From positions 1 through 41,681 of the forward strand of contig JAYTAT010000911.1 in NCBI GenBank assembly GCA_043737315.1: DNA of 41,681 bases, written 5' to 3'. Source of the DNA: Archangium sp. GTDB taxonomy: Bacteria > Myxococcota > Myxococcia > Myxococcales > Myxococcaceae. Positions 15,898-37,897 of the stretch are shown one piece after another; position 1 is the stretch's first letter; every line of letters starts with the position of its first letter. The position numbers and the translations under genes are program-made. The notes under the pieces are model-generated. The model made no database searches. It was not told where the DNA came from and was given only the letters and a program-made list of their open reading frames with translations.

Positions 15898-16527
15898 TCA
15901 GGCGTCCGCTTCCGCCCTCGCCGAGACCAGTTCTTCCAAATCGCTTGCCAACGCGTCGGCCCGATCCCGAATCGCCGTCGGCACCTTGCGGTTCGAGTGA
16001 AGTTCGGCCGCCAGGCGCTTCGAGGTCGCCCACAGCCTCTTGAGCTCTCCGGTAGAGTCGACCTTGACCTCGGGCGCGGGGAACTTCTCAACCAGCTCTT
16101 TCTTCAGCTCGCTGGTGGGTTTTTCCTGGTTCCAGATGGAGTCGCGGATCGACTTGTACTCGGTGGCGCTGAGCTGACCCCGCGCCTCAGCCTGAGCCAA
16201 CACCTCGATCACTTCGAAGGCGGGCGCCGCTTCCGCCAGCTCTGGCGTGCGCATGACCTGCGGTTCGTGCTTTTCCAGGAACCCAAAGTTGCGCGTGAGC
16301 TTGTCGGCCGTCTGTTTCTTGATGCGCAGCTCTGACAGGCAATAGGCATCGAAGGTGGGATAGCCCCACTCGGTGAAGGTGCCATCGTTGCGCACCTTTG
16401 CCAGCAGCTTGCCCAGCTCGACCCATGACGACTTGAAGCGCTTGGCCGCCAGCAGCACCGTCTGACGGAGGCTGCCTGGCTCGACCTCAGACATGTTGCG
16501 GCTGATCACTTCTTCGACGGGTGCCAT
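15898..16527 (-). CDS. hypothetical protein (helical; possible DNA-binding, family not recognised)
   Basis: About 209 aa from ATG 16527 (MAPVEEVISRN...). ATG 16566 is also possible. Consistent coding bias. Confidence 0.5.
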   Translation of the reverse strand: MAPVEEVISRNMSEVEPGSLRQTVLLAAKRFKSSWVELGKLLAKVRNDGTFTEWGYPTFDAYCLSELRIKKQTADKLTRNFGFLEKHEPQVMRTPELAEAAPAFEVIEVLAQAEARGQLSATEYKSIRDSIWNQEKPTSELKKELVEKFPAPEVKVDSTGELKRLWATSKRLAAELHSNRKVPTAIRDRADALASDLEELVSARAEADA

Positions 16528-16587
16528 GCGGGCCTCGCTTCTTTCAGCGCGGCCTCTCGACGGCAACTCAAAAGGCTGAAACGCCCG

Positions 16588-17451: not shown

Positions 17452-17505
17452 GGAGACCGCATTGTGGAGTCGGCGAACCAGAGGCGCAACTGGCGAAAGC
17501 AGCGA

Positions 17506-17670
17506 TCAGTCGTTCAACTTCTCTTCGTACTTTTCCAGCAGATCGCTGATGGCCTCACGGAGGTATTCGCTCTGACGGATTCGCGTCTCTTTCGAGAGAT
17601 CCTTGAGCATCTCGAGGCGGTCACGGTTGAGACGAAAAACCACCGAGGTGAGACGGGCGTTGTCGTTCAT
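17506..17670 (-). CDS. ribbon-helix-helix (CopG/Arc/MetJ-type) DNA-binding protein
   Basis: 54 aa from ATG 17670: MNDNARLTSVVFRLNRDRLEMLKDLSKETRIRQSEYLREAISDLLEKYEEKLND. This is the beta-strand / helix / helix pattern of RHH proteins. Confidence 0.65.
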   Translation of the reverse strand: MNDNARLTSVVFRLNRDRLEMLKDLSKETRIRQSEYLREAISDLLEKYEEKLND

Positions 17671-17693
17671 GTGCACACATGGTCTCACATGAA
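17666..17693 (-). promoter_or_regulatory. candidate RHH operator: three CATGTG/CACATG hexamers spanning the RHH start codon
   Basis: Plus strand has CATGTG (17668-17673), CACATG (17676-17681) and CACATG (17686-17691). The outer arms extend to the 8-bp inverted repeat TTCATGTG ... CACATGAA. Confidence 0.4.
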
Positions 17694-17721
17694 ACAACGT
17701 GGTCAAAAAAACACGCGTTCC

Positions 17722-17735
17722 TGATCAGCTGATCA
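17722..17735. repeat. perfect 14-bp palindrome TGATCAGCTGATCA overlapping the stop codon of the beta-barrel gene
   Basis: Read directly from the sequence and self-complementary over all 14 nt. On the minus strand it is followed by ...GTGTTTTTTTGACC. Confidence 0.6.
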
Positions 17736-18287
17736 CTCGAAGACGTAGGTCCGAAACTGGACACCGGCCATGACTTCGAACGAGAGCCGCAACGAGGTCG
17801 CGCCTCCGAGCTGACCACCGAGCTGCGCGTAAACGCCCATCACCGGCAGAAAATCGAACTGCACGCCGAACGCGCCGCGTACGCCGAACGCGAGATAGGG
17901 CGTGAGGTGCGCCGCGAGCTCGAGGTCGAAGAACGTCTTCCACTGGTCGTAGCCGATGCTGTTGCGAAGGCCTGCGTAGAACGACCCCCCGAGCGCGGTG
18001 AGCGGCCCCACGCCCGGGCTCAAGCGGCCGGCGATACGAAGCTCGTTGTGATCGCTCAGCGAGAGCGTGCCACCGACCTCGATGGGCAGCCGCACGCCCC
18101 GTTCCCCATTCGCGGTGGTGGTGACCGCGGCGACGACCTCTCCCCCGAAGGCCACGGTCAGGCCCAGAGAGCCGCGGTGGTCGTACCGGTCTTCAGCGAG
18201 CGCAAGGCCCGACGCGAGCAGCGCCACCCCGAAAAGACCAACCGTTCCCCTCGAACGAAGTCGAGGGGCCACCAGCGTGGTGAACAT
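17733..18287 (-). CDS. small predicted outer-membrane beta-barrel protein
   Basis: ATG 18287 shares 1 nt with the upstream TGA (TGATG). Signal peptide ...GLFGVALLASGLALAEDRY. Alternating hydrophobic strands rich in G/A/L. Aromatic near the C-terminus (...QFRTYVFE). Confidence 0.6.
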   Translation of the reverse strand: MFTTLVAPRLRSRGTVGLFGVALLASGLALAEDRYDHRGSLGLTVAFGGEVVAAVTTTANGERGVRLPIEVGGTLSLSDHNELRIAGRLSPGVGPLTALGGSFYAGLRNSIGYDQWKTFFDLELAAHLTPYLAFGVRGAFGVQFDFLPVMGVYAQLGGQLGGATSLRLSFEVMAGVQFRTYVFE

Positions 18288-20851
18288 CAGCTGCGGCGAC
18301 GGCGCAACAACGCGAGCGCTCCGAGGGCGAGGAGCTCGAGACCCCCGGTCGAAGAACAACCGGCGCGCTGCGTGGCGCCCGGCAACGCCTCCACCACCTC
18401 AGGACGAACGGCGACCTGTGCTGAGCGGTAGATGGACTGGCCCACGTTGCCGAACTCGTCGCGGGCGAACACGGTCACCCCGCCCTGCACTTCGATGGCA
18501 GACAACGAGATGTCGCGCGCCGGGCCGAAGTCAGAGGTCTGGCCTTCACCGACCCGGTAGGCGAACTCGAGGCGGTCGGCCGAGATGACGTCGCGCGCGG
18601 TGACCACCAGCAAGTCGTGTTCGAGATCGGGGCGCAACGAGAGCTCAGGCGCTTCCCAGTCGACCATGAAGCCCACGTCTTTCTGCGACGAGATCGCGTG
18701 CGGATCTTCAGCGATGCGCGAACGCACGTGGATCACGTGGTGGCCCTGCATCAGGAAACGGGGGTGCGAGACGGTCAGCTCGTTGGCCTGCGCGGGCACG
18801 AAGTCGGTCCACATGCCGTCGTCGATTTTAAAGGAGTACTCCGGGCTGCCAGACGCGCCCAGCGTGCGCACGTCGAGCACCGCTTCGGGCCAGGGCAGCG
18901 GGTGGCCGGCCAGGCGCATGTCTGCCGACCTGGGCATGCGGCTGTGCTTGAGCGCCACGGCGACTTCCGGCGCGGCCACGGCGCACATGCCATTGAGCGG
19001 CATCAGCGTCGCGTAGATGCCCAGGTGATTGTACGCCTCGGTACCCGTGATGCGGCCGATGCCCTTGACCTCGTTGACCTTCAGCTTGAACGAGCCCAGC
19101 GCCGGCAATGCAAAGCCAGACAAGCCACCGGCAAGCGCAGGCTCTGCAAGGCCAATCACCGCGGGCACCAGGTCTGCGAGCACCCGAGGATCTTCAGCGA
19201 GGATCTCTGCGTTGGCCGTGCGGATGTTGGTGATGAGCGAGCGCAGATCCCCCAGCGCCGGCGCCACCGAGTCGCAGCCGTCGAAGATGAGCGAAATGGG
19301 CAACGAGATGTCGGCGGTCAGGGTGAAGAGCCGCGCGTAGCGGTCATCGATCATCGCGTAGAAGTCGATGCTCAGGTCAGGCAGGGTGATCAGCAGCAGC
19401 GGCTTTATCGGCTTCTTGGTGACCGGGTCGTACGTGCCCTCGCCCACCACCACCTGCGGCGAGCGCGCGGGGCGCAGCACCACCATCATCGGAGCATCCT
19501 TGCCGTCGCGGGTGGCCAGCTTGCCCAACGAAGGCAGGAACGTCTTGAACAGGCCGGTGTTGATGAGCCCCACGCTCTCGGAAGTGAGGTTCAGGCAGAG
19601 CGCGCCCGACTGCTGGGCGGCCCAGAAGGCGTTGTTGAGGAAGTTCGACGAGACGCCCAGACCCACGTGGTAGCCCGAGTTCGGCGTGGCCTCTGCGTCG
19701 AAGTCGGGGAAGGCCACCATGGTCATCGGCGGCGCGGTCTGCGGCGGCACGCAATCAGAGATCGAGTTGGGCTGAATGCCCACGCGCGTTCCGAAGCTCA
19801 TGCCCGCGTTCATCTGCACGCTGGCGCCCGCCGCGAGCGAGAGCTGAATACCCGCTCCAGCCGGGGCCCCGAAAGAACCCAGCAGCGCGCCCATGTTCAT
19901 GGTGCCTTCGACGCCGAGGAAACGCGGCACGCACTGCGCGCTGGTGCCCAGCAGGCAGACCTTCCGAGAGCCGTCGCAGGTCGAGGCGACGTTGGTGCCG
20001 TCGGTGGTGCGCGGACAATCGGCGCTGGTCTGACAGGGCCAGCAGGTCTGACCGGCCACCGCCGCACGAACCTGGTTCTGCAGCGGGCCCGAGATCTGCT
20101 GGAGCACGAAGGTCTTGATGGGATCCCAGTCGGCGCCATCGCAGGCAAAGCTGCAGAAACCACCCTCAGAGCTGAGCGCGAGGTCATCCGGGTCGAGACA
20201 CGAAGGTTTGGCTGGTGCACCGCTGGCGCCGCAGATCTGCGTGCCGTTGATGGTGGTGACCTCGAAGGCGAGCAGCTTGTCGAAGCGCGTGTCGATGCTG
20301 AACTTCACCGTCGCGGTGAGGCGGTTGTCGTTGGGGTTCGCGCGCGCGGTGTTGAAGTCGATGCTGCACTTCAGGTCGCACAGGCGGTGCGGGTTGGTCA
20401 GGTAGATCTTGCCGGTGTTGATGTTGAGCTGAACGGTGGCGTCGAGCAGATCAGGCGCACGCGGCGCGAGCGAGAAGCCGGTCATCGTCACGGCCACGTT
20501 GGCGGGCAGATCCTTGTTGTCGCAGCGCGCGTCGTTGCGGCCGCCGTTGGGGCCACCCTGATCGGAGATGTACACGTCGCCGATCACCGAGACGTTCTGC
20601 ATGCTGCAGGGGATCGGCAAGGCGAGCACGCCGCCCGGCGCGAAGGCCTGAATCAGCGTCCGCCAATTCGAATTGAGGTAGTTGATGCCGCCGGCCGACA
20701 GGCGAATGTTGATCGCGTTGTCGGTCTTCGGGCCCGTGTAGCGGGTGCCCGCGGGAAACGGCGTCAGCGTGGAGCAGCCCGAGCCCGTGCCTGAACAGCT
20801 CAGGCCCACGAGCACCAGCAACACCAGTCCTGATCGGGCAGACCTATGCAT
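18287..20851 (-). CDS. large secreted Cys-rich protein with MYXO-CTERM sorting signal
   Basis: ATG 20851 is preceded by GGGAGG 8 nt upstream. Signal/lipobox-like MHRSARSGLVLLVLVGLSCSG. C-terminus ...GCSSTGGLELLALGALALLRRRRS, that is Cys, a hydrophobic helix and an Arg cluster. Confidence 0.8.
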   Translation of the reverse strand: MHRSARSGLVLLVLVGLSCSGTGSGCSTLTPFPAGTRYTGPKTDNAINIRLSAGGINYLNSNWRTLIQAFAPGGVLALPIPCSMQNVSVIGDVYISDQGGPNGGRNDARCDNKDLPANVAVTMTGFSLAPRAPDLLDATVQLNINTGKIYLTNPHRLCDLKCSIDFNTARANPNDNRLTATVKFSIDTRFDKLLAFEVTTINGTQICGASGAPAKPSCLDPDDLALSSEGGFCSFACDGADWDPIKTFVLQQISGPLQNQVRAAVAGQTCWPCQTSADCPRTTDGTNVASTCDGSRKVCLLGTSAQCVPRFLGVEGTMNMGALLGSFGAPAGAGIQLSLAAGASVQMNAGMSFGTRVGIQPNSISDCVPPQTAPPMTMVAFPDFDAEATPNSGYHVGLGVSSNFLNNAFWAAQQSGALCLNLTSESVGLINTGLFKTFLPSLGKLATRDGKDAPMMVVLRPARSPQVVVGEGTYDPVTKKPIKPLLLITLPDLSIDFYAMIDDRYARLFTLTADISLPISLIFDGCDSVAPALGDLRSLITNIRTANAEILAEDPRVLADLVPAVIGLAEPALAGGLSGFALPALGSFKLKVNEVKGIGRITGTEAYNHLGIYATLMPLNGMCAVAAPEVAVALKHSRMPRSADMRLAGHPLPWPEAVLDVRTLGASGSPEYSFKIDDGMWTDFVPAQANELTVSHPRFLMQGHHVIHVRSRIAEDPHAISSQKDVGFMVDWEAPELSLRPDLEHDLLVVTARDVISADRLEFAYRVGEGQTSDFGPARDISLSAIEVQGGVTVFARDEFGNVGQSIYRSAQVAVRPEVVEALPGATQRAGCSSTGGLELLALGALALLRRRRS

Positions 20852-20941
20852 GAAGAACGACCTCCCAGCGGCCGATGAAGAAGAGCACGCAGCGTAGCAG
20901 CACCCGCCCCCCACAAGCGCAAGACCGCCTGACTCAATGCG

Positions 20942-21841
20942 TCAGGTGAGCACGGGGAGCGCCACGGACCCCGCCTTGAGGACGTCGTTGAGCCGGCCCG
21001 ATCGGAAGGGCTCGAGATCCACGGCCACGAAGGTGAAGCCCTGCGCCTTGATGGCCGTGTTGACCGCCTCGCGCGTGCTGGGGTCGAGCATGCGCGAGAG
21101 CTCTTCCGCACCCAACTCGAGGCGCGCGACCTCGTGGTGGTACCGCACGCGGAAGTTCACGAAGCCCAGCGTACGCACGGCTTTTTCGGCCGCACCGACC
21201 TGCTTCAAACGCTCGACCGTCACCTGCGTGCCGTAAGGCAATCGCGACGCAAGGCAGGCCATCTGCGGCTTGTCCCACGTGGGAAGATCGAGGCGCTTCG
21301 ACCAGGCGCGCACCTCGGCTTTGGTGAGCTGCGCTTCAGCCAGGGGGGAGCGCACCGCGTGCTCGGCCGCTGCCTTGTGACCGGGGCGGTGATCCTTCTT
21401 GTCGTCGGCGTTGAAGCCATCGAGCACCACGGCGAGGCCCAGCTCTGCACGGTGTTTGCTGGTGATAGCGTAGAGCTCGGTCTTGCAAAAATAACAGCGG
21501 TTCGAAGGGTTCGCGGCGTAGCGGGGATCGTCGAGCTCCTTCGAGTCGACCAGCACGTGCCTCGCGCCGATCTTCGCCGCGAGCTCCTGCGCCTCTATCG
21601 CTTCGTCGGGCGCGACCGAGGCCGAGATCGCGGTCAGCGCGACCGCCCGTGCGCCGAGTTGTTCGACGGCCAGCTTGAGCACCAGCGTCGAGTCGACGCC
21701 TCCCGAAAAGGCGATCAAGGCCGAGCCGTGCGCACGCAGCGCTGCTCTGAGGCCCTCGACCCGGTCAGCAGACTGGGCGCACAGCGCATCAACCTGTGCG
21801 TCCGAGAGAACAGGCTGCTGAGGCATGGCTTGTGACGACAT
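20942..21841 (-). CDS. larE: PP-loop ATP pyrophosphatase, LarE-type sulfur transferase family
   Basis: SGGVDS PP-loop, NRCYFCKTELY (CxxC) and KPQMACLASRLPYG (the LarE-type Cys motif as I recall it). 299 aa. Confidence 0.65.
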   Translation of the reverse strand: MSSQAMPQQPVLSDAQVDALCAQSADRVEGLRAALRAHGSALIAFSGGVDSTLVLKLAVEQLGARAVALTAISASVAPDEAIEAQELAAKIGARHVLVDSKELDDPRYAANPSNRCYFCKTELYAITSKHRAELGLAVVLDGFNADDKKDHRPGHKAAAEHAVRSPLAEAQLTKAEVRAWSKRLDLPTWDKPQMACLASRLPYGTQVTVERLKQVGAAEKAVRTLGFVNFRVRYHHEVARLELGAEELSRMLDPSTREAVNTAIKAQGFTFVAVDLEPFRSGRLNDVLKAGSVALPVLT

Positions 21842-21918
21842 GCCGGGGGGATAGCGAAGCGGCGCTGGAGAGTCGAGCGCGACTGCTCGTCAGCTTCGAG
21901 GAAGTCGGTTTTCCGGCT

Positions 21919-22608
21919 TCACTTCTTGCCCTTCTTCTTCGCAGGCTTGGCGGCCTTCGCAGGCTTTGGCGCCTTGACGGGAGCAGCCACTTTGGCGGGT
22001 TTACCCGGCTTGACCTTCTTGGGGTTCGGGTTCGCCTTCATCTTCGTGCCCGTGATGACCTTGAGCTCGTCGGCGGTCATGTACGAAAGATCGAGCAGCG
22101 ACTGGAACACCTTGAGGCCGCCCTCCTCGATGCTCTCGGTGTTGGTGTGCACGATGACTTCAGCCGAGCTGGGCGGCTGGTAAGGCTCGGTGATCCCGAC
22201 GAAGTTGGGGATCTCGCCGGCGAGCGCCTTCTTGTACTTGCCGGTGGTGTCGCGCTTGATGAGCTCGTCCGTGGGGCAGTCGACGTAGACCTCGATGTAG
22301 CGCTGAATGCGGCGGCGGTTGTCGTCGCGCGATTGCTTGTCGGGGCTCGCACAGGCGACCAGCGTGGCCACGCCGTTGCGCGTGAGGGCATCGGCGACGA
22401 AGCCCAGGCGGCGCGCGATGACCATGCGCTCTTCCTTGGTGTCTCCTTCGATTTCCTTCCAGAGATCGTCCTGAAGGTCGTCTTCATCGAGGATCTCGAC
22501 CTTCCGGCCGACCTGGCGCATGCGCGCTTCGATGTACTGGGCCAGCGTGCTCTTCCCCGCCCCCAACATGCCCGTCAGCCAGACCGTGAAGCCCGTCTCT
22601 TGCGCCAT
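21919..22608 (-). CDS. cysC: adenylyl-sulfate (APS) kinase family protein with Lys/Pro/Ala-rich C-terminal tail
   Basis: ATG 22608. P-loop WLTGMLGAGKSTLA, then ...RDTTGKYKKALAGEIPNFVGITEPYQPP. Tail KANPNPKKVKPGKPAKVAAPVKAPKPAKAAKPAKKKGKK. Some canonical APS-kinase positions look substituted. Confidence 0.65.
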   Translation of the reverse strand: MAQETGFTVWLTGMLGAGKSTLAQYIEARMRQVGRKVEILDEDDLQDDLWKEIEGDTKEERMVIARRLGFVADALTRNGVATLVACASPDKQSRDDNRRRIQRYIEVYVDCPTDELIKRDTTGKYKKALAGEIPNFVGITEPYQPPSSAEVIVHTNTESIEEGGLKVFQSLLDLSYMTADELKVITGTKMKANPNPKKVKPGKPAKVAAPVKAPKPAKAAKPAKKKGKK

Positions 22609-22741
22609 TGCTCTCAGCTCCGATGCAGAAAGGCCCCGCAAAACCTTAAGGAATGCCGCTGCGGGCAGAAAAGTTGCGGCCTTATAGTCTAAAGCACTCG
22701 ATTTCTGTACAGGAAAGTGCCCGGCAGCATGCAAATGCTCA

Positions 22742-23266
22742 TTATTGCTGTTGATTTGTCCTGTGCGAGCACGCAGAAACAACGCCGGCTTCGAAGCTTT
22801 CACCCCGCCAATGCACCAGACCAAGGGGGTCGGACCACCCCAGAATCAGCCGTTGCGCGGTCAGGGCGACAAGGCTCCCGATGGGTCCTCCTTCGGGTTC
22901 AAAACCCAGCCCCCGCCGCACCGCTTCCCAGCAGGCGTCACAGCCTTCGGGGCTGCGAAAGGCCACGCCGGCCCCCACCACCACCTGGGTGCGGGCTGTC
23001 GAGGCGAGGCCCAACGGAAGGACATCGAGCACCGGTTCGAGGGCCGATTGATCCCACTGCGTGTGCGAGAGGAACCCGGTCAACTCGCAGTCTGATCTGC
23101 GTTCGATCGGAGTGCCGCCGGCCGAAAGCCAGGCCACTGCGTCGTCGATCGCCGCGCCGCTTCCCCACACCCGCACCGCAGAAACCAGCAGCTTCTCCTG
23201 CCCCTTGCCTCCCACCTCACGCAGCAGGATCTGCCGGCCGTACCGGAGAATCTGATCTTCGCGCAT
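22742..23266 (-). CDS. degenerate, shortened ThiF/MoeB-like (pseudo-E1) protein
   Basis: ATG 23266 shares 1 nt with the upstream TGA. MREDQILRYGRQILLREVGGKGQEKLL is followed by the degenerate loop VRVWGSGAAIDDAVAWLSAGG. There is no DxD...SNLxRQ motif. One CxxC (CDAC) is kept. 174 aa. Confidence 0.6.
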   Translation of the reverse strand: MREDQILRYGRQILLREVGGKGQEKLLVSAVRVWGSGAAIDDAVAWLSAGGTPIERRSDCELTGFLSHTQWDQSALEPVLDVLPLGLASTARTQVVVGAGVAFRSPEGCDACWEAVRRGLGFEPEGGPIGSLVALTAQRLILGWSDPLGLVHWRGESFEAGVVSACSHRTNQQQ

Positions 23267-29672: not shown

Positions 29673-30350
29673 TCACGCCGTGAGAATGGGCCAGCCGCGC
29701 GAGAGGCCGTCGAGCACGAGCTGGTTGCGCGAATCGCGGGGAGAAATGACCAACGCGTGCTGCGAGAACGCGAGCATGTCGACGTCGAAGTCGCCGTTGC
29801 CCACGCCGAGCGCGGGCTGAAGTTTGGCGCGCTCGAGCCAGGTGACCTTGCCGGGGCCGACGGGCACGGGCAGCTCGACCTCGCCGGTGAGCTTGCCGTC
29901 ACGGATGGAGCAGGTGACGCCGATCACCTGGTTCACCGGGATGCCCAGGGCGACCGCGCCGGGCACCACCACCCACCGGGGCGAGGCGCTGCAGATCCAC
30001 ACCGGGCAGCCAGCCTCTTTGAGCCTCGCCAGCAGGGGCCGCACGAAAGGGAAGATGCGGCCGACGATGCGCTCGGCGAAGAAGGTGGTGCAGGCCTGCT
30101 CGAGCTCGGTCTGGGTGAGATCGCGCATCACCTCGACGCAGTAGGCGTACGCGCGCGCGTGCGATTGCCCGAGCAACTTCTCGTATCGGTCGTAGCTGGC
30201 CTCGAAGATCCCGCGGTGAATGGCGTAGCGCAGAAAGTCTTCTCCGGCGTCGCCGCGCCAGAGCGTGCCGTCGGCGTCGAACACGACGCTCTGACCTGCA
30301 TGGGCGCGGGCGATGGTGTCGATCAACGCGGTCACAGGCGGGGGAAGCAT
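29673..30350 (-). CDS. HAD-superfamily hydrolase (subfamily IB-like)
   Basis: ATG 30350. Motif I VVFDADGTLW, ...ICSASP..., ...GVGNGDFDVDML. Confidence 0.75.
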   Translation of the reverse strand: MLPPPVTALIDTIARAHAGQSVVFDADGTLWRGDAGEDFLRYAIHRGIFEASYDRYEKLLGQSHARAYAYCVEVMRDLTQTELEQACTTFFAERIVGRIFPFVRPLLARLKEAGCPVWICSASPRWVVVPGAVALGIPVNQVIGVTCSIRDGKLTGEVELPVPVGPGKVTWLERAKLQPALGVGNGDFDVDMLAFSQHALVISPRDSRNQLVLDGLSRGWPILTA

Positions 30351-30381
30351 GGCGCGGGTTCTAGCTGTTACGCTGTGCAGG

Positions 30382-30825
30382 ATGCGACCGACAGCGCTCA
30401 TCACCCTGGTGGTTCTGGCCAGCTGCGGGCCCAACGCTTCGCCTTGCACGACGTGTCCACCCGTCGATGGTCTCTATTCGGTGACGTGGGGCGTCGATGC
30501 AGGCGTGGCTTCGGCCGATGGCGGCATGTGCTCGATCTCGGGGCCACGCGTGCCGACCTGGAGGCTCGAGCAAGCCGGCACACGGGTGACGACCACCATC
30601 GAAGACGTGAACCTCGGCGGCACGATCTACGACACGTTCGATCTGGTGCTGTCGGGGTCGGCCAGCACGCGAAGCTACCGGCTGCGTTCGGTGGTGATCC
30701 CCGAGGGCAACAGCCTGGATGCGGGCATTCGGCTGCAGGGCACCTTCACCACACGCACGCTGCCGATGTCGGGCGAGCCGTGCGAGGTGAATGAGTCGTT
30801 CACCGCCCAGCGCACCTCGCGCTGA
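30382..30825 (+). CDS. small lipoprotein, unknown function
   Basis: ATG 30382 gives MRPTALITLVVLASC (lipobox). 147 aa. Confidence 0.55.
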   Translation: MRPTALITLVVLASCGPNASPCTTCPPVDGLYSVTWGVDAGVASADGGMCSISGPRVPTWRLEQAGTRVTTTIEDVNLGGTIYDTFDLVLSGSASTRSYRLRSVVIPEGNSLDAGIRLQGTFTTRTLPMSGEPCEVNESFTAQRTSR

Positions 30826-30842
30826 AGAGTTTCTGAAACGTC

Positions 30843-30873
30843 GACGGCCCAGCGCTTGGAGCGCTGAGCCGTC
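30843..30873. terminator. 13-bp stem hairpin between convergent genes
   Basis: GACGGCCCAGCGC-TTGGA-GCGCTGAGCCGTC (1 mismatch). There is no clear U-tract on either strand. Confidence 0.4.
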
Positions 30874-30896
30874 AAGGGCGACCCGAAACGGCGGTC

Positions 30897-31019
30897 TTAC
30901 TTCTTCTTCTTGCCGGTGCTGGCGGCCTTCACGGCGGCCTTCTTGCGCTCGGCGCGCTTCTTCCACTTGAGGCGGATCTTGCTGCGAACTCGGCGGTGCT
31001 TCGACTTGCTGTTGGCCAT
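30897..31019 (-). CDS. 40-aa highly basic small protein
   Basis: ATG 31019 is preceded by AGGAG and a 5-nt spacer. MANSKSKHRRVRSKIRLKWKKRAERKKAAVKAASTGKKKK. Confidence 0.5.
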   Translation of the reverse strand: MANSKSKHRRVRSKIRLKWKKRAERKKAAVKAASTGKKKK

Positions 31020-31074
31020 AGGGGCTCCTGAAAAGCTGTTGGAACCGGGTGCGTACCAGAACCTTGGGAAGCGA

Positions 31075-32370
31075 TCACCCCCCTTTGTCGTCCTCTTCCT
31101 TGTCGGGCATCGGCCGGGTGGGAAAAGGCATGCCCTCGGCGCTGCGCACCCGGGTGGGCTGGGCCTCGTCGAGGTTGAAGCCCAGCTGCGATTCCGCCGC
31201 CACATCGTCCGTGGCGGGTACGGCGGGCTGATCGGGCCGCAGCTTCACGGAGGCGAAGATGGGCCGGGTGGCGTCGACGAACCTTCGCACTTCGTCGAGC
31301 GGCAAGGCGGGCACCAGGTGGCCATGGGCCCCTGCCATCTCGGTGGCCATGCACATGGAGTTGAGGATCGCCTCTTCGGTGGCCTCCATGACCGCCTCGT
31401 AGAGCGGATCCAGCCGCGCATCGAGCAGCAGCTTCATCTTGTAGACCATCTTGTTCGTGCGCCGGGGCACCACGTTCGCCGTCGAGAAGCCGACCACGAT
31501 CTCGCCTGAGCCGTGGGCGGCGTAGCTCCCCACCCGGCCGATACCAAGCGCGACGCGTTTGCACAGGCGGTTGATCTGGTGCGGCAACAGCGGCGCGTCG
31601 GTGGCCACCACCGCGATGATCGACCCGTAGCTCTTGATGCGCCGGGGCATGCCGCGGAACTTCTCGGCGAGCACTTCCCCCACCGGCATGCCGGCGACGC
31701 GGAGGTTGTGCATCCTTCCAAAGTTGCTCATCACCAGCACACCCAGCGTGTAGCCGCCGTGCACCGGGGGCAGCTTGCGCGAGCTGGTGCCGATGCCCGC
31801 CTTGAAGTCGCAGGTGATCATACCCGTGCCGCCGCCCACAGCGCCCTCTTCGACCACGCCCGACTTCGCCCGCTTGAGCGCCTCGCGTACGTGCTCTTCC
31901 CTCACGTGCCGGCCCGCGATGTCATTCAGGTAGCTGTCGTCGCACTCGCCCACGACCGGAATGATCACGTCGTGCTCGTCGCCGATGCCCGGGTGGCTCT
32001 CGACCATGGTGCGCGCCAGCGCGTCGCTCACCGCGCCCACGGCCATGGTGTTGGTGAGCATGATGGGGGTCTCGAGCAGGCCCCATTCCACCACCTGGGT
32101 CAGGCCAGAGACTTCACCCGCGCCGTTGAGCACGAAGGCGCCGCCGGCGAGGCGATCCATGAAGATGTTGCCGTCGTTGGGGATGATGGCGGTCACGCCG
32201 GTGCGCACCGGGCCCTTGCCGACTGACAACGGGCCAGGCGCGCCTTCGATGATGGTGGAGTGACCGACGAGCACGCCCTCCACGTCGGTGATCGAGTTGA
32301 ACTTGCCGGGCTTGAAGCGGCCCAGCGGAAGATCCAGTTCGCGGGCACGAACCCGATTGGAGGCCGACAT
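31075..32370 (-). CDS. peptidase S58 / DmpA family (self-processing L-aminopeptidase / D-Ala-esterase-amidase type)
   Basis: ATG 32370. ...NSITDVEGVLVGH...TGVTAI...GAVGGGTG..., with the probable autoprocessing site SYG|SIIAVVATDAPL. Acidic C-terminal tail of about 55 aa. Confidence 0.8.
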   Translation of the reverse strand: MSASNRVRARELDLPLGRFKPGKFNSITDVEGVLVGHSTIIEGAPGPLSVGKGPVRTGVTAIIPNDGNIFMDRLAGGAFVLNGAGEVSGLTQVVEWGLLETPIMLTNTMAVGAVSDALARTMVESHPGIGDEHDVIIPVVGECDDSYLNDIAGRHVREEHVREALKRAKSGVVEEGAVGGGTGMITCDFKAGIGTSSRKLPPVHGGYTLGVLVMSNFGRMHNLRVAGMPVGEVLAEKFRGMPRRIKSYGSIIAVVATDAPLLPHQINRLCKRVALGIGRVGSYAAHGSGEIVVGFSTANVVPRRTNKMVYKMKLLLDARLDPLYEAVMEATEEAILNSMCMATEMAGAHGHLVPALPLDEVRRFVDATRPIFASVKLRPDQPAVPATDDVAAESQLGFNLDEAQPTRVRSAEGMPFPTRPMPDKEEDDKGG

Positions 32371-32460
32371 TTCGCACACTGTACTCGGGACGCCCACCGT
32401 CCGGAGGGAACAGAAGCATGGATCGACGGGAGGCTGCTGATGACGACCTGGCAGGCTCGA

Positions 32461-34518
32461 TCAGGCCGCGTCGGCGTCGGCTCGATCACGACGGCGTGAA
32501 CCGCGTTCTTTGTACCGGCGAATGGCCCCCGAGAGGATCTCGCCGATGAGCGTGTGGTAATCCATGCCGTCGCCCTGGGCGATCAGCACGAGGTCGCTCC
32601 AGCCCGGGGTGAGCCCCGGCAGCGGGTTGCACTCGATGAAGTAGATGCGGCCCGTCTCATCCATGCGGAAGTCGATGCGCGCCACGTCGCGGCAACCCAG
32701 TGACATGAAGGCGGTGCGAGCCGAGGCACGCAGCCGCTCGAGCTGAGCGGGTTCGACCTTCGCCGGCACCTCGTAGCGAATGCGATCGTTCTCTTCGAGC
32801 TTGTCCTCGAACTTGTAGATCGGCGTCTTGTCAGACTTGTCGGTGAAGACGATCTCCATCGGGGGCAACACTTCGGGCCTGCGCTCACCCAGCAGACCCA
32901 CGGTGAACTCGCGGCCGCCGATGTATTCTTCGACCAGCGCGGGCTGCTGGTAGCGCTCGACCAACTCCTTGACCACTTCACGCAGCTCGGTCTCGTTGTG
33001 GCACACGCTCTTGCTGATCACGCCCTTGCTCGAGCCCTCGGCCACGGGCTTGACCATCAAGGGCCAGCGCACGAATTGTTTGTCGAGGCGTTCACGGCCG
33101 CTGCTCATCAGCTGGAAGTTCGGGGTGTCGAGGCCCGCGGCGCGCACCACACGTTTGGCCAGCGCCTTGTCGAGCGCGAGTGACAACGTCGCGGGATCAG
33201 AGCCCGTGTACGGAATGTCGAGCAGCTCGAGCAGCGCGGGCACCTGGCTCTCGCGGTTTCGGCCGCGGAACCCTTCGGCGATGTTGAACACCACGTCGAC
33301 CGGAGTGCTCGCGAGCACCATCGGCAGCTCGGCGGTGGCCTCGAGGTCGACCACCTCGTGACCGTGGCTGGCGATCGCCTCGCGAATGGCCTGCAGCGTG
33401 GTGGGCGAGTCGTACTCGGCTTCGCGATCTTCACCTTCCGCGGTCGGCTTGATGCGCTTGACGTTGAAGGTGAAGCCCACCTTGAGTGGACCCCGGCGCG
33501 TCGGGCGCGAGAGCCCACGCGGCTTGTCCTTGATCTTGTAGCGCTTGGCCGCGTTCTGAATCACCGCGTCGATCACGCCATCGAAGTGCAGCCCTTCGAG
33601 GGCCGCCGCCGCGTAGATACCCGCGCCCTGCTCGAGCGAAGGCAGCGCGTTGATCTCGAGGAAGTACGGCACCCCTGCGTCCGACAGGCGGAAGTCGACC
33701 CGGCCGAGATCCTTGCAGTCGAGCTTCTTGATGACCGTGCGCGCCATCTTGCGAATGCGCTCGCTCATGTCTTCGTCGATGGCCGCGGGGGCTCGCACGC
33801 TGACCGCCTTGTCGCGCGTGGTCTTCAACTCGTAGTCGTAGATGGAGTACCGCCGCGCCTTCGCGATGGCGGGGTCGATCACGTATTCGACGGGGCTGAG
33901 CACGCCGTCGAAGTCGTTGTCGACTGCCTCGAGGAACGGCACGGTCAGATCGCGGCCGACGATGAACTCTTCGACCAGCACGCCCGCGGGATACTTCTCG
34001 AGCGCCTTGATCACCTTGCGCCTGAGTTCGTCGACGGTCTCGGCCACCGAGTCTTGCGTGATGCCCTTGCTGCTGCCCTCGAAGTTGGGCTTCACGATGA
34101 CGGGAAAGTGGAGCTCGTCGGGCTTGAGCTCAGAGACCTTTTCCACGAACTGCCAGCCGGGCGTGCGCACGCCCAGCTCTCGGAGCACCAGCTTGGAGAG
34201 CTGCTTGTCGAGCGTCAACGCCAACGCGTAGGCGTCGCTGCCCGTGTACGGAAAACCGAGCTCCTCGAAGAGCGCGGGGAAGAACGCTTCACGGAAACGG
34301 CCGCGGCGGCCCTCGGCCGTGTTGAAGATGAGATCGGGTGAGAAGGCCTCGAGGCGCGCGACGGTGCGGGAGGCAGGGCCCGAGACCTCCATCTTCTCGA
34401 CCCGGTGGCCCAGGCGTTCGATCGCCGCGGCCAATGCGTTGACAGTCTCTTCCGTGTCGAACTCCGCTTCTTCTTCGGAGTCCGACAACCTCAAGTTGTG
34501 CGTGAGCGCGATGCGCAT
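32461..34518 (-). CDS. tandem-duplicated D-alanine--D-alanine-ligase-like ATP-grasp protein (two full modules)
   Basis: ATG 34518. Module 1 is MRIALTHN...FPVIVKPNFEGSSKGI...GRVDFRLSDAGVPYFLEINALPSL. Module 2 is LKVGFTFN...WPLMVKPVAEGSSKGV...ARIDFRMDETGRIYFIECNPLPGL. Confidence 0.8.
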   Translation of the reverse strand: MRIALTHNLRLSDSEEEAEFDTEETVNALAAAIERLGHRVEKMEVSGPASRTVARLEAFSPDLIFNTAEGRRGRFREAFFPALFEELGFPYTGSDAYALALTLDKQLSKLVLRELGVRTPGWQFVEKVSELKPDELHFPVIVKPNFEGSSKGITQDSVAETVDELRRKVIKALEKYPAGVLVEEFIVGRDLTVPFLEAVDNDFDGVLSPVEYVIDPAIAKARRYSIYDYELKTTRDKAVSVRAPAAIDEDMSERIRKMARTVIKKLDCKDLGRVDFRLSDAGVPYFLEINALPSLEQGAGIYAAAALEGLHFDGVIDAVIQNAAKRYKIKDKPRGLSRPTRRGPLKVGFTFNVKRIKPTAEGEDREAEYDSPTTLQAIREAIASHGHEVVDLEATAELPMVLASTPVDVVFNIAEGFRGRNRESQVPALLELLDIPYTGSDPATLSLALDKALAKRVVRAAGLDTPNFQLMSSGRERLDKQFVRWPLMVKPVAEGSSKGVISKSVCHNETELREVVKELVERYQQPALVEEYIGGREFTVGLLGERRPEVLPPMEIVFTDKSDKTPIYKFEDKLEENDRIRYEVPAKVEPAQLERLRASARTAFMSLGCRDVARIDFRMDETGRIYFIECNPLPGLTPGWSDLVLIAQGDGMDYHTLIGEILSGAIRRYKERGSRRRDRADADAA

Positions 34519-34544
34519 TGGGTCAAGCCCTCTTCCGCCGGGCG

Positions 34545-35090
34545 TCACTCACGCCGCGGCTCCGTCGTCGTCTGTTGCCGCAAACGGGCCCCGGCGCTGT
34601 TCTCTTGTCGCGCCGGAACTCGCTGCGGTTGATCTGCTTGAATCTTGCCGTCGATCACTTGCGTCTGCGCCCACGTATCACCGAGACGAACCCCTTCGCG
34701 ATCACGCAGACACTGCAGGGCCTCGACGCTGCCGATCACCACCAGCCCCGCCAGGAACGCGCGCGGCCCCAGCTCGGGCATCATCGAGAGCAGAACGATG
34801 AGGCCGAAAGGTGCGTTGCGCAGCACGCTGTCGCGATGCCGGGCGCCGCTCTTGGTGGGCACGAAGACCACCTTCACGCCGAAGATCTTCTTCCCCGGGC
34901 TCTGGCCCTGCAGCATGCCGTCGGCGAACAAAGTGTAGAGCATGGCCATCACCACGCCCGCGGGCCCGAAGGACCAGTAGAGCGACCAGGCGATCGCCGT
35001 GTCGACCAGCCGCGCGCCGCCTCGCAGGAGCAACGAGGCCTTGGGGTACCCCGATGGCTCGCCCTCCTTCACGACGCGCAAGGTTCTCAT
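34545..35090 (-). CDS. RDD family membrane protein
   Basis: RGGARLVDTAIAWSLYW... and ...GQSPGKKIFGVKVV...RHRDSVLRNAPFGL are typical RDD-domain patterns. ATGA overlap with the upstream gene. Confidence 0.7.
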   Translation of the reverse strand: MRTLRVVKEGEPSGYPKASLLLRGGARLVDTAIAWSLYWSFGPAGVVMAMLYTLFADGMLQGQSPGKKIFGVKVVFVPTKSGARHRDSVLRNAPFGLIVLLSMMPELGPRAFLAGLVVIGSVEALQCLRDREGVRLGDTWAQTQVIDGKIQADQPQRVPARQENSAGARLRQQTTTEPRRE

Positions 35091-35491
35091 TCGTCGCGCT
35101 CGAGCTTGTCTGCGGCGAGGCCGTGCAGCCGCTCCCAGGCGGTCTGCATCGGATCGACCTCGGCGGTCAGCTTCTGCAGGTGCGCGATCGCTTCGTCTTC
35201 CGAGCGGTGCGCGACCTCGAGGTGAGGCACGATCTCGGGCTGCGGCAACGGGGCGCCTTCACGCGTAAAGAACACGAAGGCCATCGAGGGCCGCTTCGAT
35301 GACTCCCGCATCGCGAATTGAAGGCCATCGAATTTCCAGCCCATGGGAACCCACTCGTTGATCGCTCGCTCCAGCGTGTGCTCATCGACGCTCGAGAGTT
35401 CGACCACTTTGTAATGGAGCGCCCGCTGCGGGGGCATGTCGCGAGCCTCCTCGACCAGGGAGGCCTTTTTCTTCGTGCGCTTGTTCGCCAT
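35087..35491 (-). CDS. DUF4177-like small protein with basic N-terminus
   Basis: ATG 35491. MANKRTKKKASL...LHYKVVELSS...LERAINEWVPMGWKFDGLQF. The upstream part of the track ORF overlaps the neighbouring gene and is rejected. Confidence 0.45.
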   Translation of the reverse strand: MANKRTKKKASLVEEARDMPPQRALHYKVVELSSVDEHTLERAINEWVPMGWKFDGLQFAMRESSKRPSMAFVFFTREGAPLPQPEIVPHLEVAHRSEDEAIAHLQKLTAEVDPMQTAWERLHGLAADKLERDE

Positions 35492-35505
35492 GGAAGAAGG
35501 CAAAG

Positions 35506-36783
35506 TTACCAGACGCTTCGGTAGGTCCGTTTGCCTGAGATCTCCGACGCACCGGGGTTCTCGGCGGCATCGGCCCAGAGCAGGCTCACCAACGTCTTGG
35601 CGCCGATCGCACCGACACCCGCCAGGATGTAGGGGACCGGCGACTGGGTGAAGCCGGTGGTGGGCCCGAGCAACAGGCCCGAGAGCGCCAACACCGCGCC
35701 TCCGACGATCGCGCCGAAGATGTTGGCTCTGATGATCTGGGTGGTGCTGGGGTTGAACTTGAGCGTGGCCAGCGCCATCACGCCGGCGCCGATCGCAGGC
35801 ATCAGCATCACCGCATCCAAACCGCTGCGGGGCGTGATGGCGCCGCCGGTGGTGGCGATGATGGCCACGATGAGCGCGGTGTAAATCGCAGCCCAGGCCG
35901 CGCCAGAGACGATGAGCGTGGCCTTGTTGAGCGCGATGTCGCCGCCGCCCACGATGGCCGCAAGCCAGGCGCCTGCCGAGCTGCCGATCATCGTCATCCA
36001 CATGGTGGCGTAGGCGTCTCCGTGGCCGGTCACGAGGTCAGTGAACCCGCCCAGGAACATGCCGCCGATGAGTGAACTCAAGATGCCGAAGTTCGCCGAG
36101 CGGTGGCTGATCCAGTTGTTGAACTGCCAGATGGCCGCCGAGGTGAAGCCGATGCCGGCGCCCAGCAGCGTGCCCATCAGGTAGGCCAGGCGCGCGTCTT
36201 CGCCCGTGACGATGTCGGAGCAGCTGACCACCTTGCTGTTGGCGCCCAGGTAACGCGGGTCGATGGGAGGACAGCCGCCCGCGGGGATGTCGATCTGGCC
36301 CCGGCGGTCGAGCACGGCCTCGCGTGAAGGGCCGGCGTCGATCGCGCGCGGCACCAACTGGGTGGCGAGCACGCCGAAGCCGGTCATCAGGGTGTGGTGC
36401 AGCAGGAAGGTGAGGCTGCCCGGGCCCGAAAGAAAGGCGCCTTCACGCGGGTGGCCGTCGATCATCGCGCCCGGGCCCGAAGGCACGATCTGCGGCGGGT
36501 TGCGATCGAACTGCTCCGGCAGCGGGGGCGGCGGCGGCAGCGCCTCGATGGTGCGCGTGTCGGGCTGCAGCGGCGTGTCTTGCGGGGGCGGCGGCTGCGG
36601 CTGAGGGATGGGCTCAGGCTGTGGCGCGGGGGGCGGCTGCGCGACGCCGGCATCGTACGGATCGCCCATGGGCACGATGATGACCTTCTCATTCGGAATT
36701 TCAGGAGTGCCCTGAGCGACGGACAACGACGCTGAAAGCACCAGTCCCAACACGATGATCCGCTGCATGGTGTCTTGCAACAT
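35506..36783 (-). CDS. polytopic membrane protein with signal peptide and Pro-rich segment, unknown function
   Basis: MLQDTMQRIIVLGLVLSASLSVAQG (ATG 36783 or 36768). PPPAPQPEPIPQPQPPPPQ linker. The C-terminal half is Gly/Ala-rich TM helices. Confidence 0.6.
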   Translation of the reverse strand: MLQDTMQRIIVLGLVLSASLSVAQGTPEIPNEKVIIVPMGDPYDAGVAQPPPAPQPEPIPQPQPPPPQDTPLQPDTRTIEALPPPPPLPEQFDRNPPQIVPSGPGAMIDGHPREGAFLSGPGSLTFLLHHTLMTGFGVLATQLVPRAIDAGPSREAVLDRRGQIDIPAGGCPPIDPRYLGANSKVVSCSDIVTGEDARLAYLMGTLLGAGIGFTSAAIWQFNNWISHRSANFGILSSLIGGMFLGGFTDLVTGHGDAYATMWMTMIGSSAGAWLAAIVGGGDIALNKATLIVSGAAWAAIYTALIVAIIATTGGAITPRSGLDAVMLMPAIGAGVMALATLKFNPSTTQIIRANIFGAIVGGAVLALSGLLLGPTTGFTQSPVPYILAGVGAIGAKTLVSLLWADAAENPGASEISGKRTYRSVW

Positions 36784-36808
36784 AGCGCGCTTCAGGTAGC
36801 TCCCCACC

Positions 36809-37321
36809 ATGTCGAGTGAAGCCTTCGAAGGTCTGTCACCCATCGTGCACCCCACGGCGTTCGTTCACCCGTCTGCGTTACTCCTGGGTGACGTGAAGCT
36901 CGCTGAGGAGGTCTCGGTGTGGCCGACGGCTGTGTTGCGCGGGGATTGTGGAACGATCCAGATCGGCGCGCGCACCAACATTCAGGATGGCACCATCGCG
37001 CATGCGACCACCGGTTTCAGTCAGACGCACATCGGCGTGGAGTGCACCGTGGGGCACCGGGTGATTCTGCACGGCTGCACCGTGGGAAATCGGTGCCTGA
37101 TTGGCATGGGGAGCATCGTGCTGGATGGGGTGGAGATTGGGGATGAGTGTTTTGTGGCGGCGGGCTCGGTGGTGACTCCGGGCAAGAAGTTCGAGCCGAG
37201 AGGTTTTCTGATGGGTTCACCGGCGCGGCGGGTGCGGGAGGTCAGCGAGCGCGATCTGATGTCGATCGACGCCGCGTGGCGGTCGTATGTGCATTTGCTG
37301 CAGGGGTACTCGAAGCGGTGA
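36809..37321 (+). CDS. gamma-class carbonic anhydrase-like / hexapeptide (LbH) transferase family protein
   Basis: VWPTAVLRGDCGTIQIGARTNIQDGTIAH...VGHRVILHGCTVGNRCLIGMGSIVLDGVEIGDECFVAAGSVV. 170 aa. Confidence 0.85.
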   Translation: MSSEAFEGLSPIVHPTAFVHPSALLLGDVKLAEEVSVWPTAVLRGDCGTIQIGARTNIQDGTIAHATTGFSQTHIGVECTVGHRVILHGCTVGNRCLIGMGSIVLDGVEIGDECFVAAGSVVTPGKKFEPRGFLMGSPARRVREVSERDLMSIDAAWRSYVHLLQGYSKR

Positions 37322-37357
37322 AATGACTCGAGGCCCTCACCCAGGGGGACGCACGAG

Positions 37358-37897
37358 TCACTTCCCGGCGTCTTCCCGATACAGCTCAGCCAGGGCGTGC
37401 GCCTTTTCGACCTCGTCGCGTGCTTGATCGAGCCTCATCACCCGATCGAAGTTCGCGACCTGCGTCTTGAGCGCATCCGACACCATCACGCCCGCTGACA
37501 ACCTCGCCCGCGCGCTCTGCCGCTCTTCCTGCAGCTCGGCCAACTGCCGCGACAGTTCCTCTGCCGCGTCCATCAACAGCTTCGCGTTCACCCCGGCCTG
37601 CGCATGCGCCTCGTGGGTGGTCTCGAGCAGCTGCTGCGCCTCAGACAGATCCCGCTTCAGCGTCTTCTCGATCTTCGGCTCACCCAGCGCGCGCTCGAGC
37701 TTTTCCTTCGTGGTGCCCACCCGCTTCTCGTACTTCTGTTCATCCCGCGCGAGCTCGGCCCGGAGCGCCAGCAACGTGGCCGCCGACTTCCGCACCTCTG
37801 CGCCCTGACGATCGAGCGAGCTGATCACCGCGTCGAACACGGCCAGCGGATCGCTCGACTTGAAGACCACCGGCTTTTTCTTGAAGAACCCGAACAC
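37358..37897 (-). CDS. PspA/IM30 (ESCRT-III-like) family coiled-coil protein, short form
   Basis: GTG 37897 follows GAGGTGG. The N-terminal MFGFFKKK amphipathic start, then SDPLAVFDAVISSLDRQGAEVRKSAATLLALRAEL... and ...NFDRVMRLDQARDEVEKAHALAEL resemble PspA heptad architecture. Confidence 0.55.
   Translation of the reverse strand: MFGFFKKKPVVFKSSDPLAVFDAVISSLDRQGAEVRKSAATLLALRAELARDEQKYEKRVGTTKEKLERALGEPKIEKTLKRDLSEAQQLLETTHEAHAQAGVNAKLLMDAAEELSRQLAELQEERQSARARLSAGVMVSDALKTQVANFDRVMRLDQARDEVEKAHALAELYREDAGK

Follow-up and report, generated by a model that had tools for sequence, protein, structure and literature searches.

A 41,681-nucleotide stretch of an Archangium sp. genome (GenBank assembly GCA_043737315.1, contig JAYTAT010000911.1), referred to below as the window, encodes on its minus strand a 685-residue protein in which two Ddl-like ATP-grasp modules are joined, followed by the gene for a self-processing aminopeptidase of the S58 (DmpA/BapA) family. 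Our best explanation of this pair, which we hold tentatively and at slightly less than even confidence, is that the first protein is an amide ligase unconnected with the cell wall that acts on a basic, possibly beta-, amino acid, and that the S58 protein is the aminopeptidase that turns its product over. The substrate class, the number of ligations and the role of the peptidase are what we infer from the comparisons described here. Neither the two-module architecture nor the idea of beta-lysine is new, and the ligase is already in print as a tandem-DDL protein.

The ligase gene and its parts are as follows, with the catalytic positions taken from alignment with DdlB of Escherichia coli:

32461..34518, minus strand: two-module Ddl-like ATP-grasp ligase of 685 residues, ATG at 34518 and stop at 32461-32463, assigned from motifs, Pfam matches and synteny
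33529..34518, minus strand: module N, residues 1-330, with predicted catalytic residues K143, EGSSKG 147-152, R273, D275, E288 and N290
33493..33528, minus strand: inter-module linker, residues 331-342, predicted to be disordered (AlphaFold2, predicted local distance difference test (pLDDT) below 50)
32464..33492, minus strand: module C, residues 343-685, with predicted catalytic residues K490, EGSSKG 494-499, R614, D616, E629 and N631, and a family-specific Asp at the position of DdlB Leu282

The first-pass annotation of this DNA had described two complete Ddl-like modules in one chain. All of the motifs it quoted were found, in the same order in each half: an acidic patch (EAEFDTEET at residues 17-25 and EAEYDSPTT at 366-374), FNTAEGRRGRFREA at residues 65-78 and FNIAEGFRGRNRES at 411-424, PYTGSD at 90-95 and 436-441, VKPNFEGSSKG at 142-152 and VKPVAEGSSKG at 489-499, and GRVDFR...EINALP at 272-293 and ARIDFR...ECNPLP at 613-634. 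Pfam likewise recognises two Dala_Dala_lig_C stretches. An AlphaFold2 model built with 22 homologues as input consists of two confident modules (mean pLDDT 86.6), and its top Foldseek matches in the Protein Data Bank are Ddl structures, with template-modelling scores of at most 0.87 on the target; as modelled, the ligase has the Ddl-type ATP-grasp fold.

For the comparison of active-site residues, the DdlB reference sequence, checked to be identical to that of 2dln/1iov, was aligned to both modules of the window ligase and of 16 other fused proteins (17 in all). It can be seen that K97, K144, the E148-G-S150-S151 loop, E180, K215, R255, D257, E270 and N272 of DdlB are kept in both window modules. 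The residues for ATP and Mg2+ binding and for phosphoryl transfer that are expected of a D-alanine--D-alanine ligase (EC 6.3.2.4) are thus present twice, and neither half of the window ligase is a pseudo-domain by this comparison.

The residues of DdlB that bind D-Ala are His63, Tyr216 (part of a Glu15-Ser150-Tyr216 triad) and Ser281/Leu282, and these are replaced in both modules. In the window ligase His63 is Glu in both, Tyr216 is Thr in module N and Leu in module C, Ser281 is Ala in module N, and Leu282 is Gly in module N and Asp in module C. The replacements run through the family. Every one of the 32 modules that are intact among the 17 fused proteins carries His63 to Glu, Glu68 to Arg and Met259 to Arg, and has Thr, Ser, Asn, Gln, Leu or Phe at the position of Tyr216; every C module has Asp for Leu282 and most N modules have Ala for Ser281. 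An acidic residue is retained in most modules at the position of Glu15, the DdlB residue that binds the first substrate by its free amine. The extra acidic and basic residues of the pocket suggest a charged substrate, and the acidic ones at positions 63 and 282 would suit one with a second positive charge. This family-wide replacement of the D-Ala pocket appears to be unreported in the literature searched.

Curated family models place the modules outside Ddl in the same way. Against NCBIfam NF002378 (Ddl, cut-off 243 bits) module N scores 160.9 and module C 184.5 bits, and against TIGR01205 (cut-off 245.65) they score 141.1 and 166.3 bits; the full-length protein passes the NCBIfam cut-off with 340.9 bits by summing two stretches that each fail singly. 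No mur, dcw or fts genes are found among the window open reading frames (ORFs) scanned. In Myxococcus xanthus, whose MXAN_4097 is the orthologue of the window ligase, the primary ddl 'is likely MXAN_5601', a gene of the cluster for cell wall and division, and insertion mutants of MXAN_4097 and of its neighbour MXAN_4098 have normal S-motility and no obvious defect in growth or morphology (Subedi & Wall 2022, PMC9108774). Neither the position nor the growth requirement of a housekeeping Ddl is therefore seen here. The window ligase shares the ATP-grasp fold and all ATP, Mg and phosphoryl-transfer residues with DdlB (2dln), VanA and VanG, and differs from them in its 23-31% identity, in its two modules per chain, in the placement of its gene outside the dcw cluster and in the non-essential nature of its orthologue. 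We conclude that it is very likely not the cell-wall D-Ala-D-Ala ligase, in keeping with the earlier proposal that it is distinct from the housekeeping Ddl.

A related alternative is that the enzyme is a D-amino-acid dipeptide ligase for cell-wall remodelling, making D-Ala-D-X or D-X-D-Y for peptidoglycan variants or spores, with the S58 protein as a D-aminopeptidase or D-Ala amidase, the activities under which DmpA was first described. All of the top sequence and structure matches are indeed Ddl, VanA or VanG, the summed score of the full protein lies above the NCBIfam cut-off, the closest solved S58 protein (2drh) is deposited as a 'hypothetical D-aminopeptidase', and an SLT transglycosylase gene is present elsewhere in the window. 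We nevertheless consider this alternative distinctly unlikely: the D-Ala-site residues are replaced in both modules across the family, each module falls under the curated cut-off, no mur/dcw genes lie nearby among the window ORFs scanned, the M. xanthus mutant is without obvious morphological or growth defect and has a canonical ddl elsewhere (PMC9108774), and relatives associate with genes for lysine 2,3-aminomutase (LAM) as well as GNAT proteins, not with racemases or Mur ligases.

The first-pass annotation had called the ligase an internal tandem duplication, and here it was imprecise. The two halves align end to end (E = 9e-63) with only 37% identity. A profile search run exhaustively against 1.8 billion cluster representatives returned many proteins of about 330 residues, from other organisms, that match ligase residues 1-330 or 345-670 at 41-57% identity, so that each half is nearer to stand-alone proteins than to the other half. 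When the single-module relatives were re-scored against each half they fell into clean N-type and C-type groups. By these sequence relationships the 685-residue ligase is the fusion product of two long-diverged paralogues of the Ddl type that are not equivalent, and not a recent duplication. Stand-alone N-type proteins exist (L081, L092), and in LAM clusters the two modules occur both fused and as adjacent genes. One such arrangement (L083, 3928-8973) has a KamA-like radical-SAM gene and, after it, an uninterrupted row of four Ddl-like genes that overlap (323, 334, 328 and 331 residues), with a GNAT gene about 2.5 kb beyond.

Among the 17 fused proteins the C module is intact in all, and the N module keeps every catalytic residue in 15, including the window ligase. 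The two exceptions have intact C modules. In one (L088, 8001-9014) the N module has lost the equivalents of K144, E148, S150, R255, E270 and N272, with K144 to Asn, E148 to Thr, R255 to Gln and E270 to Arg, and in the other (L091, 8103-8948) most catalytic residues are gone; the replacements at positions 63, 68 and 259 are also partly absent from these degenerate modules. Judged by alignment, the C module would be the indispensable catalyst, and the N module looks active in the window and not in every relative; two ligations would therefore not be a universal property of the family. This division into N-type and C-type paralogues, whose modules have fused and split repeatedly and whose N module has now and then decayed, again appears unreported in the literature searched.

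These observations bear on the possibility that the protein is a single-reaction enzyme, an intramolecular counterpart of the homodimers that Ddl enzymes form, in which the C module does the chemistry, the N module is structural or regulatory and the product is a dipeptide. The unfailing C module, the N modules degenerate in L088 and L091, and the lone C-type modules found with S58 (L093, L105) or, in many loci, with LAM are all in its favour. It is nonetheless unlikely, since retention of all catalytic residues in 15 of 17 N modules, the window's among them, is hard to explain without selection for catalysis, and since N-type proteins also occur on their own. Pseudo-dimer packing of the two modules was considered as well; in the AlphaFold2 model the modules are confident, and the predicted template-modelling score of the whole (0.51) leaves their mutual placement unfixed, with no confident inter-module packing.

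The second gene of the pair and the spacer that precedes it are as follows:

31075..32370, minus strand: S58 (DmpA/BapA-family) self-processing N-terminal nucleophile (Ntn) aminopeptidase, 431 residues, ATG at 32370, predicted cleavage Gly249|Ser250 with the Ser codon at 31621-31623
32371..32460, minus strand: ligase-S58 intergenic spacer of 90 nt, with no terminator-like site and bridged by an RNA-derived contig

The protein matches Peptidase_S58 (Pfam PF03576) over profile positions 1-306 of 307 (E = 8e-115, 383.9 bits against a cut-off of 23.9), and its best matches of known structure are PH0078 of Pyrococcus horikoshii (2drh, 2e-100), DmpA (1b65, 8e-70) and BapA (3n2w, 2e-68). The autoprocessing site proposed in the first-pass annotation was borne out at sequence level: 'YG|SIIAVVATDAPL' aligns with 'RG|SIIVVLATDLPL' of DmpA, and the predicted Gly249|Ser250 bond, within 'YGSIIAVVATDAPL', lies opposite the DmpA (1b65) stretch 'RGSIIVVLATDLPL', a position that we take to be DmpA's own Gly249|Ser250 site. 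The window protein resembles DmpA of Ochrobactrum anthropi, BapA of Sphingosinicella and PH0078 over the full S58 domain, and differs from them in a low-complexity C-terminal tail of about 70 residues and in its conserved ATP-grasp partner. Inspection of the N-terminus revealed no signal peptide. We know of no established physiological role, substrate or partner for beta-aminopeptidases of the DmpA/BapA type. The characterised enzymes of this kind remove N-terminal beta- or D-residues; DmpA and BapA split off beta-amino acids from the N-terminus of substrates such as carnosine, and can form such bonds too (PMC9235088).

The S58 gene had been placed about 90 nt downstream of the ligase on the same strand, and the gap is exactly 90 nt, with both genes on the minus strand. 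A scan of 30200-37400 for promoters and terminators gave counts at the level of shuffled sequence and nothing in the ligase-S58 spacer. A 253-nt contig from an ice metatranscriptome (run X11), covering 32331-32583, crosses the spacer, at low depth and with DNA carry-over possible. Orthologues of the ligase, 77-99% identical, were collected from 80 genome loci of Myxococcaceae, Archangiaceae or unclassified Myxococcota, termed the Myxococcaceae loci below. The S58 gene is downstream and co-oriented in 47 of the 80, within 500 nt in 19, so that ligase and S58 are syntenic there and not always in one operon; the gap between them looks like an insertion hot spot. One of these loci (L001, 10069-13449) carries a 1126-residue gene with bacterial Ig-like domains between S58 and a ligase 99% identical to that of the window. 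Another, labelled 'Comamonas sp. KCTC 72670' (L064), contains the whole myxobacterial SglS-RDD-ligase-S58 locus at 77% identity and is probably a mislabelled or contaminated assembly.

Beyond this group, a metagenome scan with the C-type profile yielded 80 loci, 24 of them with a fused N+C ligase. S58 lies downstream of the ligase in 16 of these 24, and most of the other eight end too early to tell. The S58 gene even overlaps the ligase stop in L090, which has a 42%-identical fused ligase, and in L093, which has a single C-type module; L105 is a further case of a single C-type module with S58. The linkage is thus tighter outside the Myxococcaceae than within. Absence of ligase-S58 linkage in related genomes had been named as the finding that would count against the pairing, and the linkage was found in the Myxococcaceae and far beyond them. 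All-versus-all clustering of the ORFs of 94 loci recovered the ligase, KamA, S58 and GNAT as recurrent, and no other conserved partner gene recurred in it. We conclude that ligase and S58 are probably functionally coupled. In the literature searched no paper treats an ATP-grasp ligase and DmpA as a pair, and the recurrent partnership seems not to have been reported there.

One metagenome locus has a larger set of genes (L095, 5008-11384), a translationally coupled operon of a fused N+C ligase, S58, a 488-residue protein without a Pfam match, an AstE/AspA-family deacylase and a RimK-like ATP-grasp ligase, giving three ligase modules and two hydrolases in total. Its last three genes were found in no other locus compared, and the extra genes of L093 are likewise unique to that locus among those compared.

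A second context comes from the metagenome relatives with C-type modules. A KamA-family radical-SAM aminomutase is adjacent in 35 of the 80 loci and a GNAT gene in 12, typically in the order LAM - C-type ligase, or LAM - ligase - second ligase module - GNAT (L084, L132, L147, L159 and others). The aminomutase of L084 matches the LAM of Clostridium subterminale (2a5h) at 3e-129, and Asp293 and Asp330, which in LAM bind the epsilon-ammonium group of lysine, are kept in all 39 linked aminomutases. In L097 a KamA-family gene stands directly upstream of a fused N+C ligase whose modules are 55% and 62% identical to those of the window. In the substrate pocket the likeness of the window ligase to the LAM-linked members is mixed: Glu63, Arg68, Arg259 and, in the C module, Asp282 are in common, and the residue at the Tyr216 position of the C module differs. 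The GNAT was considered as a possible AblB and this was dropped, as the GNAT of L084 matched only rimI among NCBIfam models, and weakly.

Beta-lysine has been proposed for such a cluster before. An 'MXAN_4097-like amidoligase' was described in a lichen Nostoc, where one operon encodes it together with LAM and a SET methyltransferase, and its authors proposed that (methylated) beta-lysine is passed on to an unknown acceptor (Gagunashvili & Andresson 2018, PMC5987646). That ligase resembles ours in having been grouped with MXAN_4097 by its authors and in the LAM adjacency that we see in 35 of 80 metagenome loci, a likeness by description and not by sequence; it differs in that no S58 was reported there (PMC5987646), whereas the window carries genes for S58, SglS and RDD proteins and none for LAM. 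No paper was found in the literature searched for ATP-grasp enzymes together with an aminomutase. The label 'MXAN_4097-like' probably goes back to Iyer and colleagues (2009), who may already have defined the ligase family. Nothing in the data points to D-amino acids, and the context of the relatives points to beta-lysine, which is well-grounded as a substrate for part of the ligase family. As the substrate specifically, we regard beta-lysine as doubtful. Being a beta3-type amino acid it would fit an S58 peptidase, which for the window is speculation.

Taken together, the proposed scheme is as follows. The 685-residue protein would be a cytoplasmic ATP-grasp amide ligase with both modules catalytically competent. 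Each module would phosphorylate the carboxylate of an amino acid with a free amine to an acyl phosphate, which a second amine would then attack. With unlike pockets, the two modules would carry out different ligations and so yield a di- or tripeptide, an amide or a doubly acylated compound; the two-step tripeptide or oligomer synthase put forward in the first-pass annotation is thus plausible. The substrate would be charged, most likely a basic amino acid, with beta-lysine in the distant LAM-linked relatives. After self-cleavage at Gly249|Ser250 the S58 protein would remove the N-terminal (beta- or non-standard) residue of the ligase product, and the adjacent RDD membrane protein may move substrate or product across the membrane. 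A more specific version, in which ligase and S58 build up and break down a peptide of the cytoplasm whose N-terminal residue is a beta-amino acid (beta-lysine or one related to it), with two different ligations by the two modules, in a pathway independent of the ribosome and of non-ribosomal peptide synthetases, is possible but rather improbable. The logic of an ATP-grasp enzyme that makes an amide bond and a hydrolase that breaks it is known from carnosine synthase with the beta-aminopeptidases and from cyanophycin synthetase with cyanophycinase, as an analogy and not an orthology: carnosine synthase is eukaryotic, its product having an N-terminal beta-amino acid, and the second domain of cyanophycin synthetase is Mur-ligase-like and not a second Ddl module.

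Several observations weigh against the view that a basic, possibly beta-, amino acid is ligated and released by this pair. No S58 gene is found downstream in 18 Myxococcaceae loci whose flank on that side extends for 7.5 kb or more, and where it is present in that group its distance from the ligase varies from 30 nt to 7.4 kb. When three linked aminomutases were compared by tblastn with the window and the 80 Myxococcaceae loci, no KamA homologue came up in the window or, out to 8 kb from the ligase, in any of these loci, so that the window lacks the adjacent LAM that marks the putative beta-lysine ligases. Among the best 120 matches of the L097 and L088 aminomutases there is no Myxococcaceae protein, most of the 120 being without a name. 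None of the 80 metagenome loci has both KamA and S58, and LAM is linked to only one of the 24 fused N+C loci (L097). At the Tyr216 position of the C module, both KamA-adjacent fused proteins have Phe (two examples only), nine of ten S58-adjacent ones have Gln, and the Myxococcaceae, including the window and M. xanthus, have Leu. Since KamA and S58 are never together, KamA is missing near the Myxococcaceae ligases and the residue at this position differs, the S58-linked branch, including the window, may use a different amino acid. The interpretation of the pocket is itself built on sequence alignment and on the roles of residues in DdlB, rather than on a liganded structure. The M. xanthus ligase mutant, having no reported phenotype, gives no physiological read-out, and an operon whose products both form and hydrolyse one bond would have to be regulated if a futile cycle is to be avoided. 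The KamA-like neighbour of the ligase in L088 was dropped as support. This divergent KamA-family protein of 470-480 residues (L088 6378-7829, and also in L175 and L176) keeps CxxxCxxC and the Asp293/Asp330 equivalents and has a weak LAM_C Pfam match; it is frequent in Polyangia-type genomes, and its named homologues belong to Polyangiales, Nannocystaceae, Kofleriaceae and similar groups, where it stands alone, and as the homologues in two Polyangia-type genomes are not ligase-linked the adjacency may be incidental.

The genes upstream of the ligase place the window locus among known myxobacterial operons:

34545..35090, minus strand: RDD-family membrane protein, the MXAN_4098 orthologue by position (Pfam RDD, 3e-07)
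35087..35491, minus strand: SglS orthologue (MXAN_4099-like), 134 residues, no Pfam domain, acidic C-terminus
35506-36855, minus strand: 449-residue protein without a Pfam match, Pro-rich in its N-terminal part and hydrophobic in its C-terminal part, probably a membrane protein

The RDD gene lies 26 nt upstream of the ligase in the window and adjoins it in all 80 Myxococcaceae loci; an SglS-like gene stands upstream of the RDD gene in 78 of them, and in the window its stop codon and the start of the RDD gene share the letters ATGA. In M. xanthus, sglS (MXAN_4099), MXAN_4098 and MXAN_4097 form an apparent operon that is conserved across the Cystobacterineae, and the order SglS - MXAN_4098-like - tandem-DDL ligase with overlapping or nearly overlapping ORFs, by which that cluster is recognised, is present in the window (PMC9108774). 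The M. xanthus locus in our set (L062) reads hemB, a 184-residue SglS-like protein, RDD, ligase, S58, and the core YKVVELS...FAMRESSKRP is common to the 184-residue protein and the window SglS-like protein. From synteny and sequence, the window locus is best described as orthologous to the sglS-MXAN_4098-MXAN_4097 operon, in an Archangium-type form to which an S58 gene is added. The likeness to MXAN_4097 comprises about 77% identity, the two modules, the SglS-like and RDD genes upstream with overlapping ORFs and S58 downstream; the differences are that the window has the 449-residue membrane-protein gene in place of hemB and an S58 gene only 90 nt away. The 449-residue gene, which stops 14 nt short of the SglS-like gene, has conserved counterparts in 45 of the 80 loci.

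The first-pass annotation knew of no characterised didomain Ddl of this form. That such a protein is still uncharacterised holds good; its architecture had, however, been noted in print, MXAN_4097 being described as having 'two-tandem DDL C-terminal domains' in a paper that contains no biochemistry, no link to S58 and no wider family analysis (PMC9108774).

The same neighbourhood supports another possibility, that the ligase acts in the manner of RimK or tubulin-tyrosine-ligase-type (TTL) enzymes and adds residues to the acidic C-terminus of a partner such as SglS. The sglS, RDD and ligase genes are a tightly packed operon in 78-80 of 80 loci, the SglS tail is acidic and resembles the C-termini that such ATP-grasp enzymes modify (of 78 orthologues, 70 have at least three Asp/Glu among their last eight positions and 45 finish with Glu), and the operon of L095 carries RimK-like ATP-grasp and AstE/AspA-type deacylase genes. 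We judge this very unlikely all the same. Genes for SglS and RDD occur only in the seven metagenome loci with modules closest to those of the window (63-79% identical), whereas the ligase-S58 and ligase-LAM pairs are far broader; the motility phenotype of sglS is not shared by the MXAN_4097 and MXAN_4098 mutants (PMC9108774); the acidic residue aligned with Glu15 in most modules favours a free amino acid as the acyl donor; and an N-terminal aminopeptidase cannot undo a C-terminal addition. The SglS C-terminus reads '...KLERDE' in the window and '...LEPEE' in Myxococcus and Corallococcus.

The ligase might also belong to a secondary-metabolite or pro-drug pathway, in which it caps a toxic amino-acid analogue that S58 uncaps on activation or export. 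ATP-grasp enzymes of the Ddl/L-amino-acid-ligase type do make dipeptide antibiotics, and a membrane protein gene is adjacent in the window. For the Nostoc cluster, where an efflux pump is also encoded, a natural-product role of beta-lysine has been put forward (PMC5987646). Such a role is extremely unlikely for the window, as the ligase is 77-99% identical in every sampled genus of Myxococcaceae and Archangiaceae and sits in a housekeeping context (hemB, ClpX, UvrD), a pattern of core physiology and not of a patchy cluster, and as the S58 protein is without a signal peptide.

If the non-cell-wall ligase and its turnover peptidase are as we propose, a large and widespread branch of the proteins annotated as 'D-alanine--D-alanine ligase family' would be mislabelled and would consist of amide ligases for substrates other than D-alanine, and the pairing would point to a natural substrate of the DmpA/BapA beta-aminopeptidases, enzymes used in biocatalysis. 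The LAM and GNAT pairing in other lineages suggests unrecognised small molecules derived from beta-lysine, such as osmolytes, storage compounds or signals. For the myxobacteria, a testable function would be at hand for two genes of the conserved sglS operon, whose link to type IV pilus motility is unexplained. Should the proposal fail, the protein would be an ordinary dispensable Ddl paralogue.

Other features of the window were recorded in passing. Riboswitches and other RNA leaders were sought with Rfam in the window and in nine loci related to it, and one tRNA was the only match. Downstream of the ClpX-like gene, four consecutive ORFs (222, 287, 208 and 875 residues; 15898-20914, minus strand) have no Pfam match. 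At 20942-22824 on the same strand a PP-loop ATPase-like gene, with weak matches to Asn_synthase, NAD_synthase and the N-terminal part of Arginosuc_synth, adjoins an APS-kinase-domain gene whose product has an N-terminal extension of about 75 residues.

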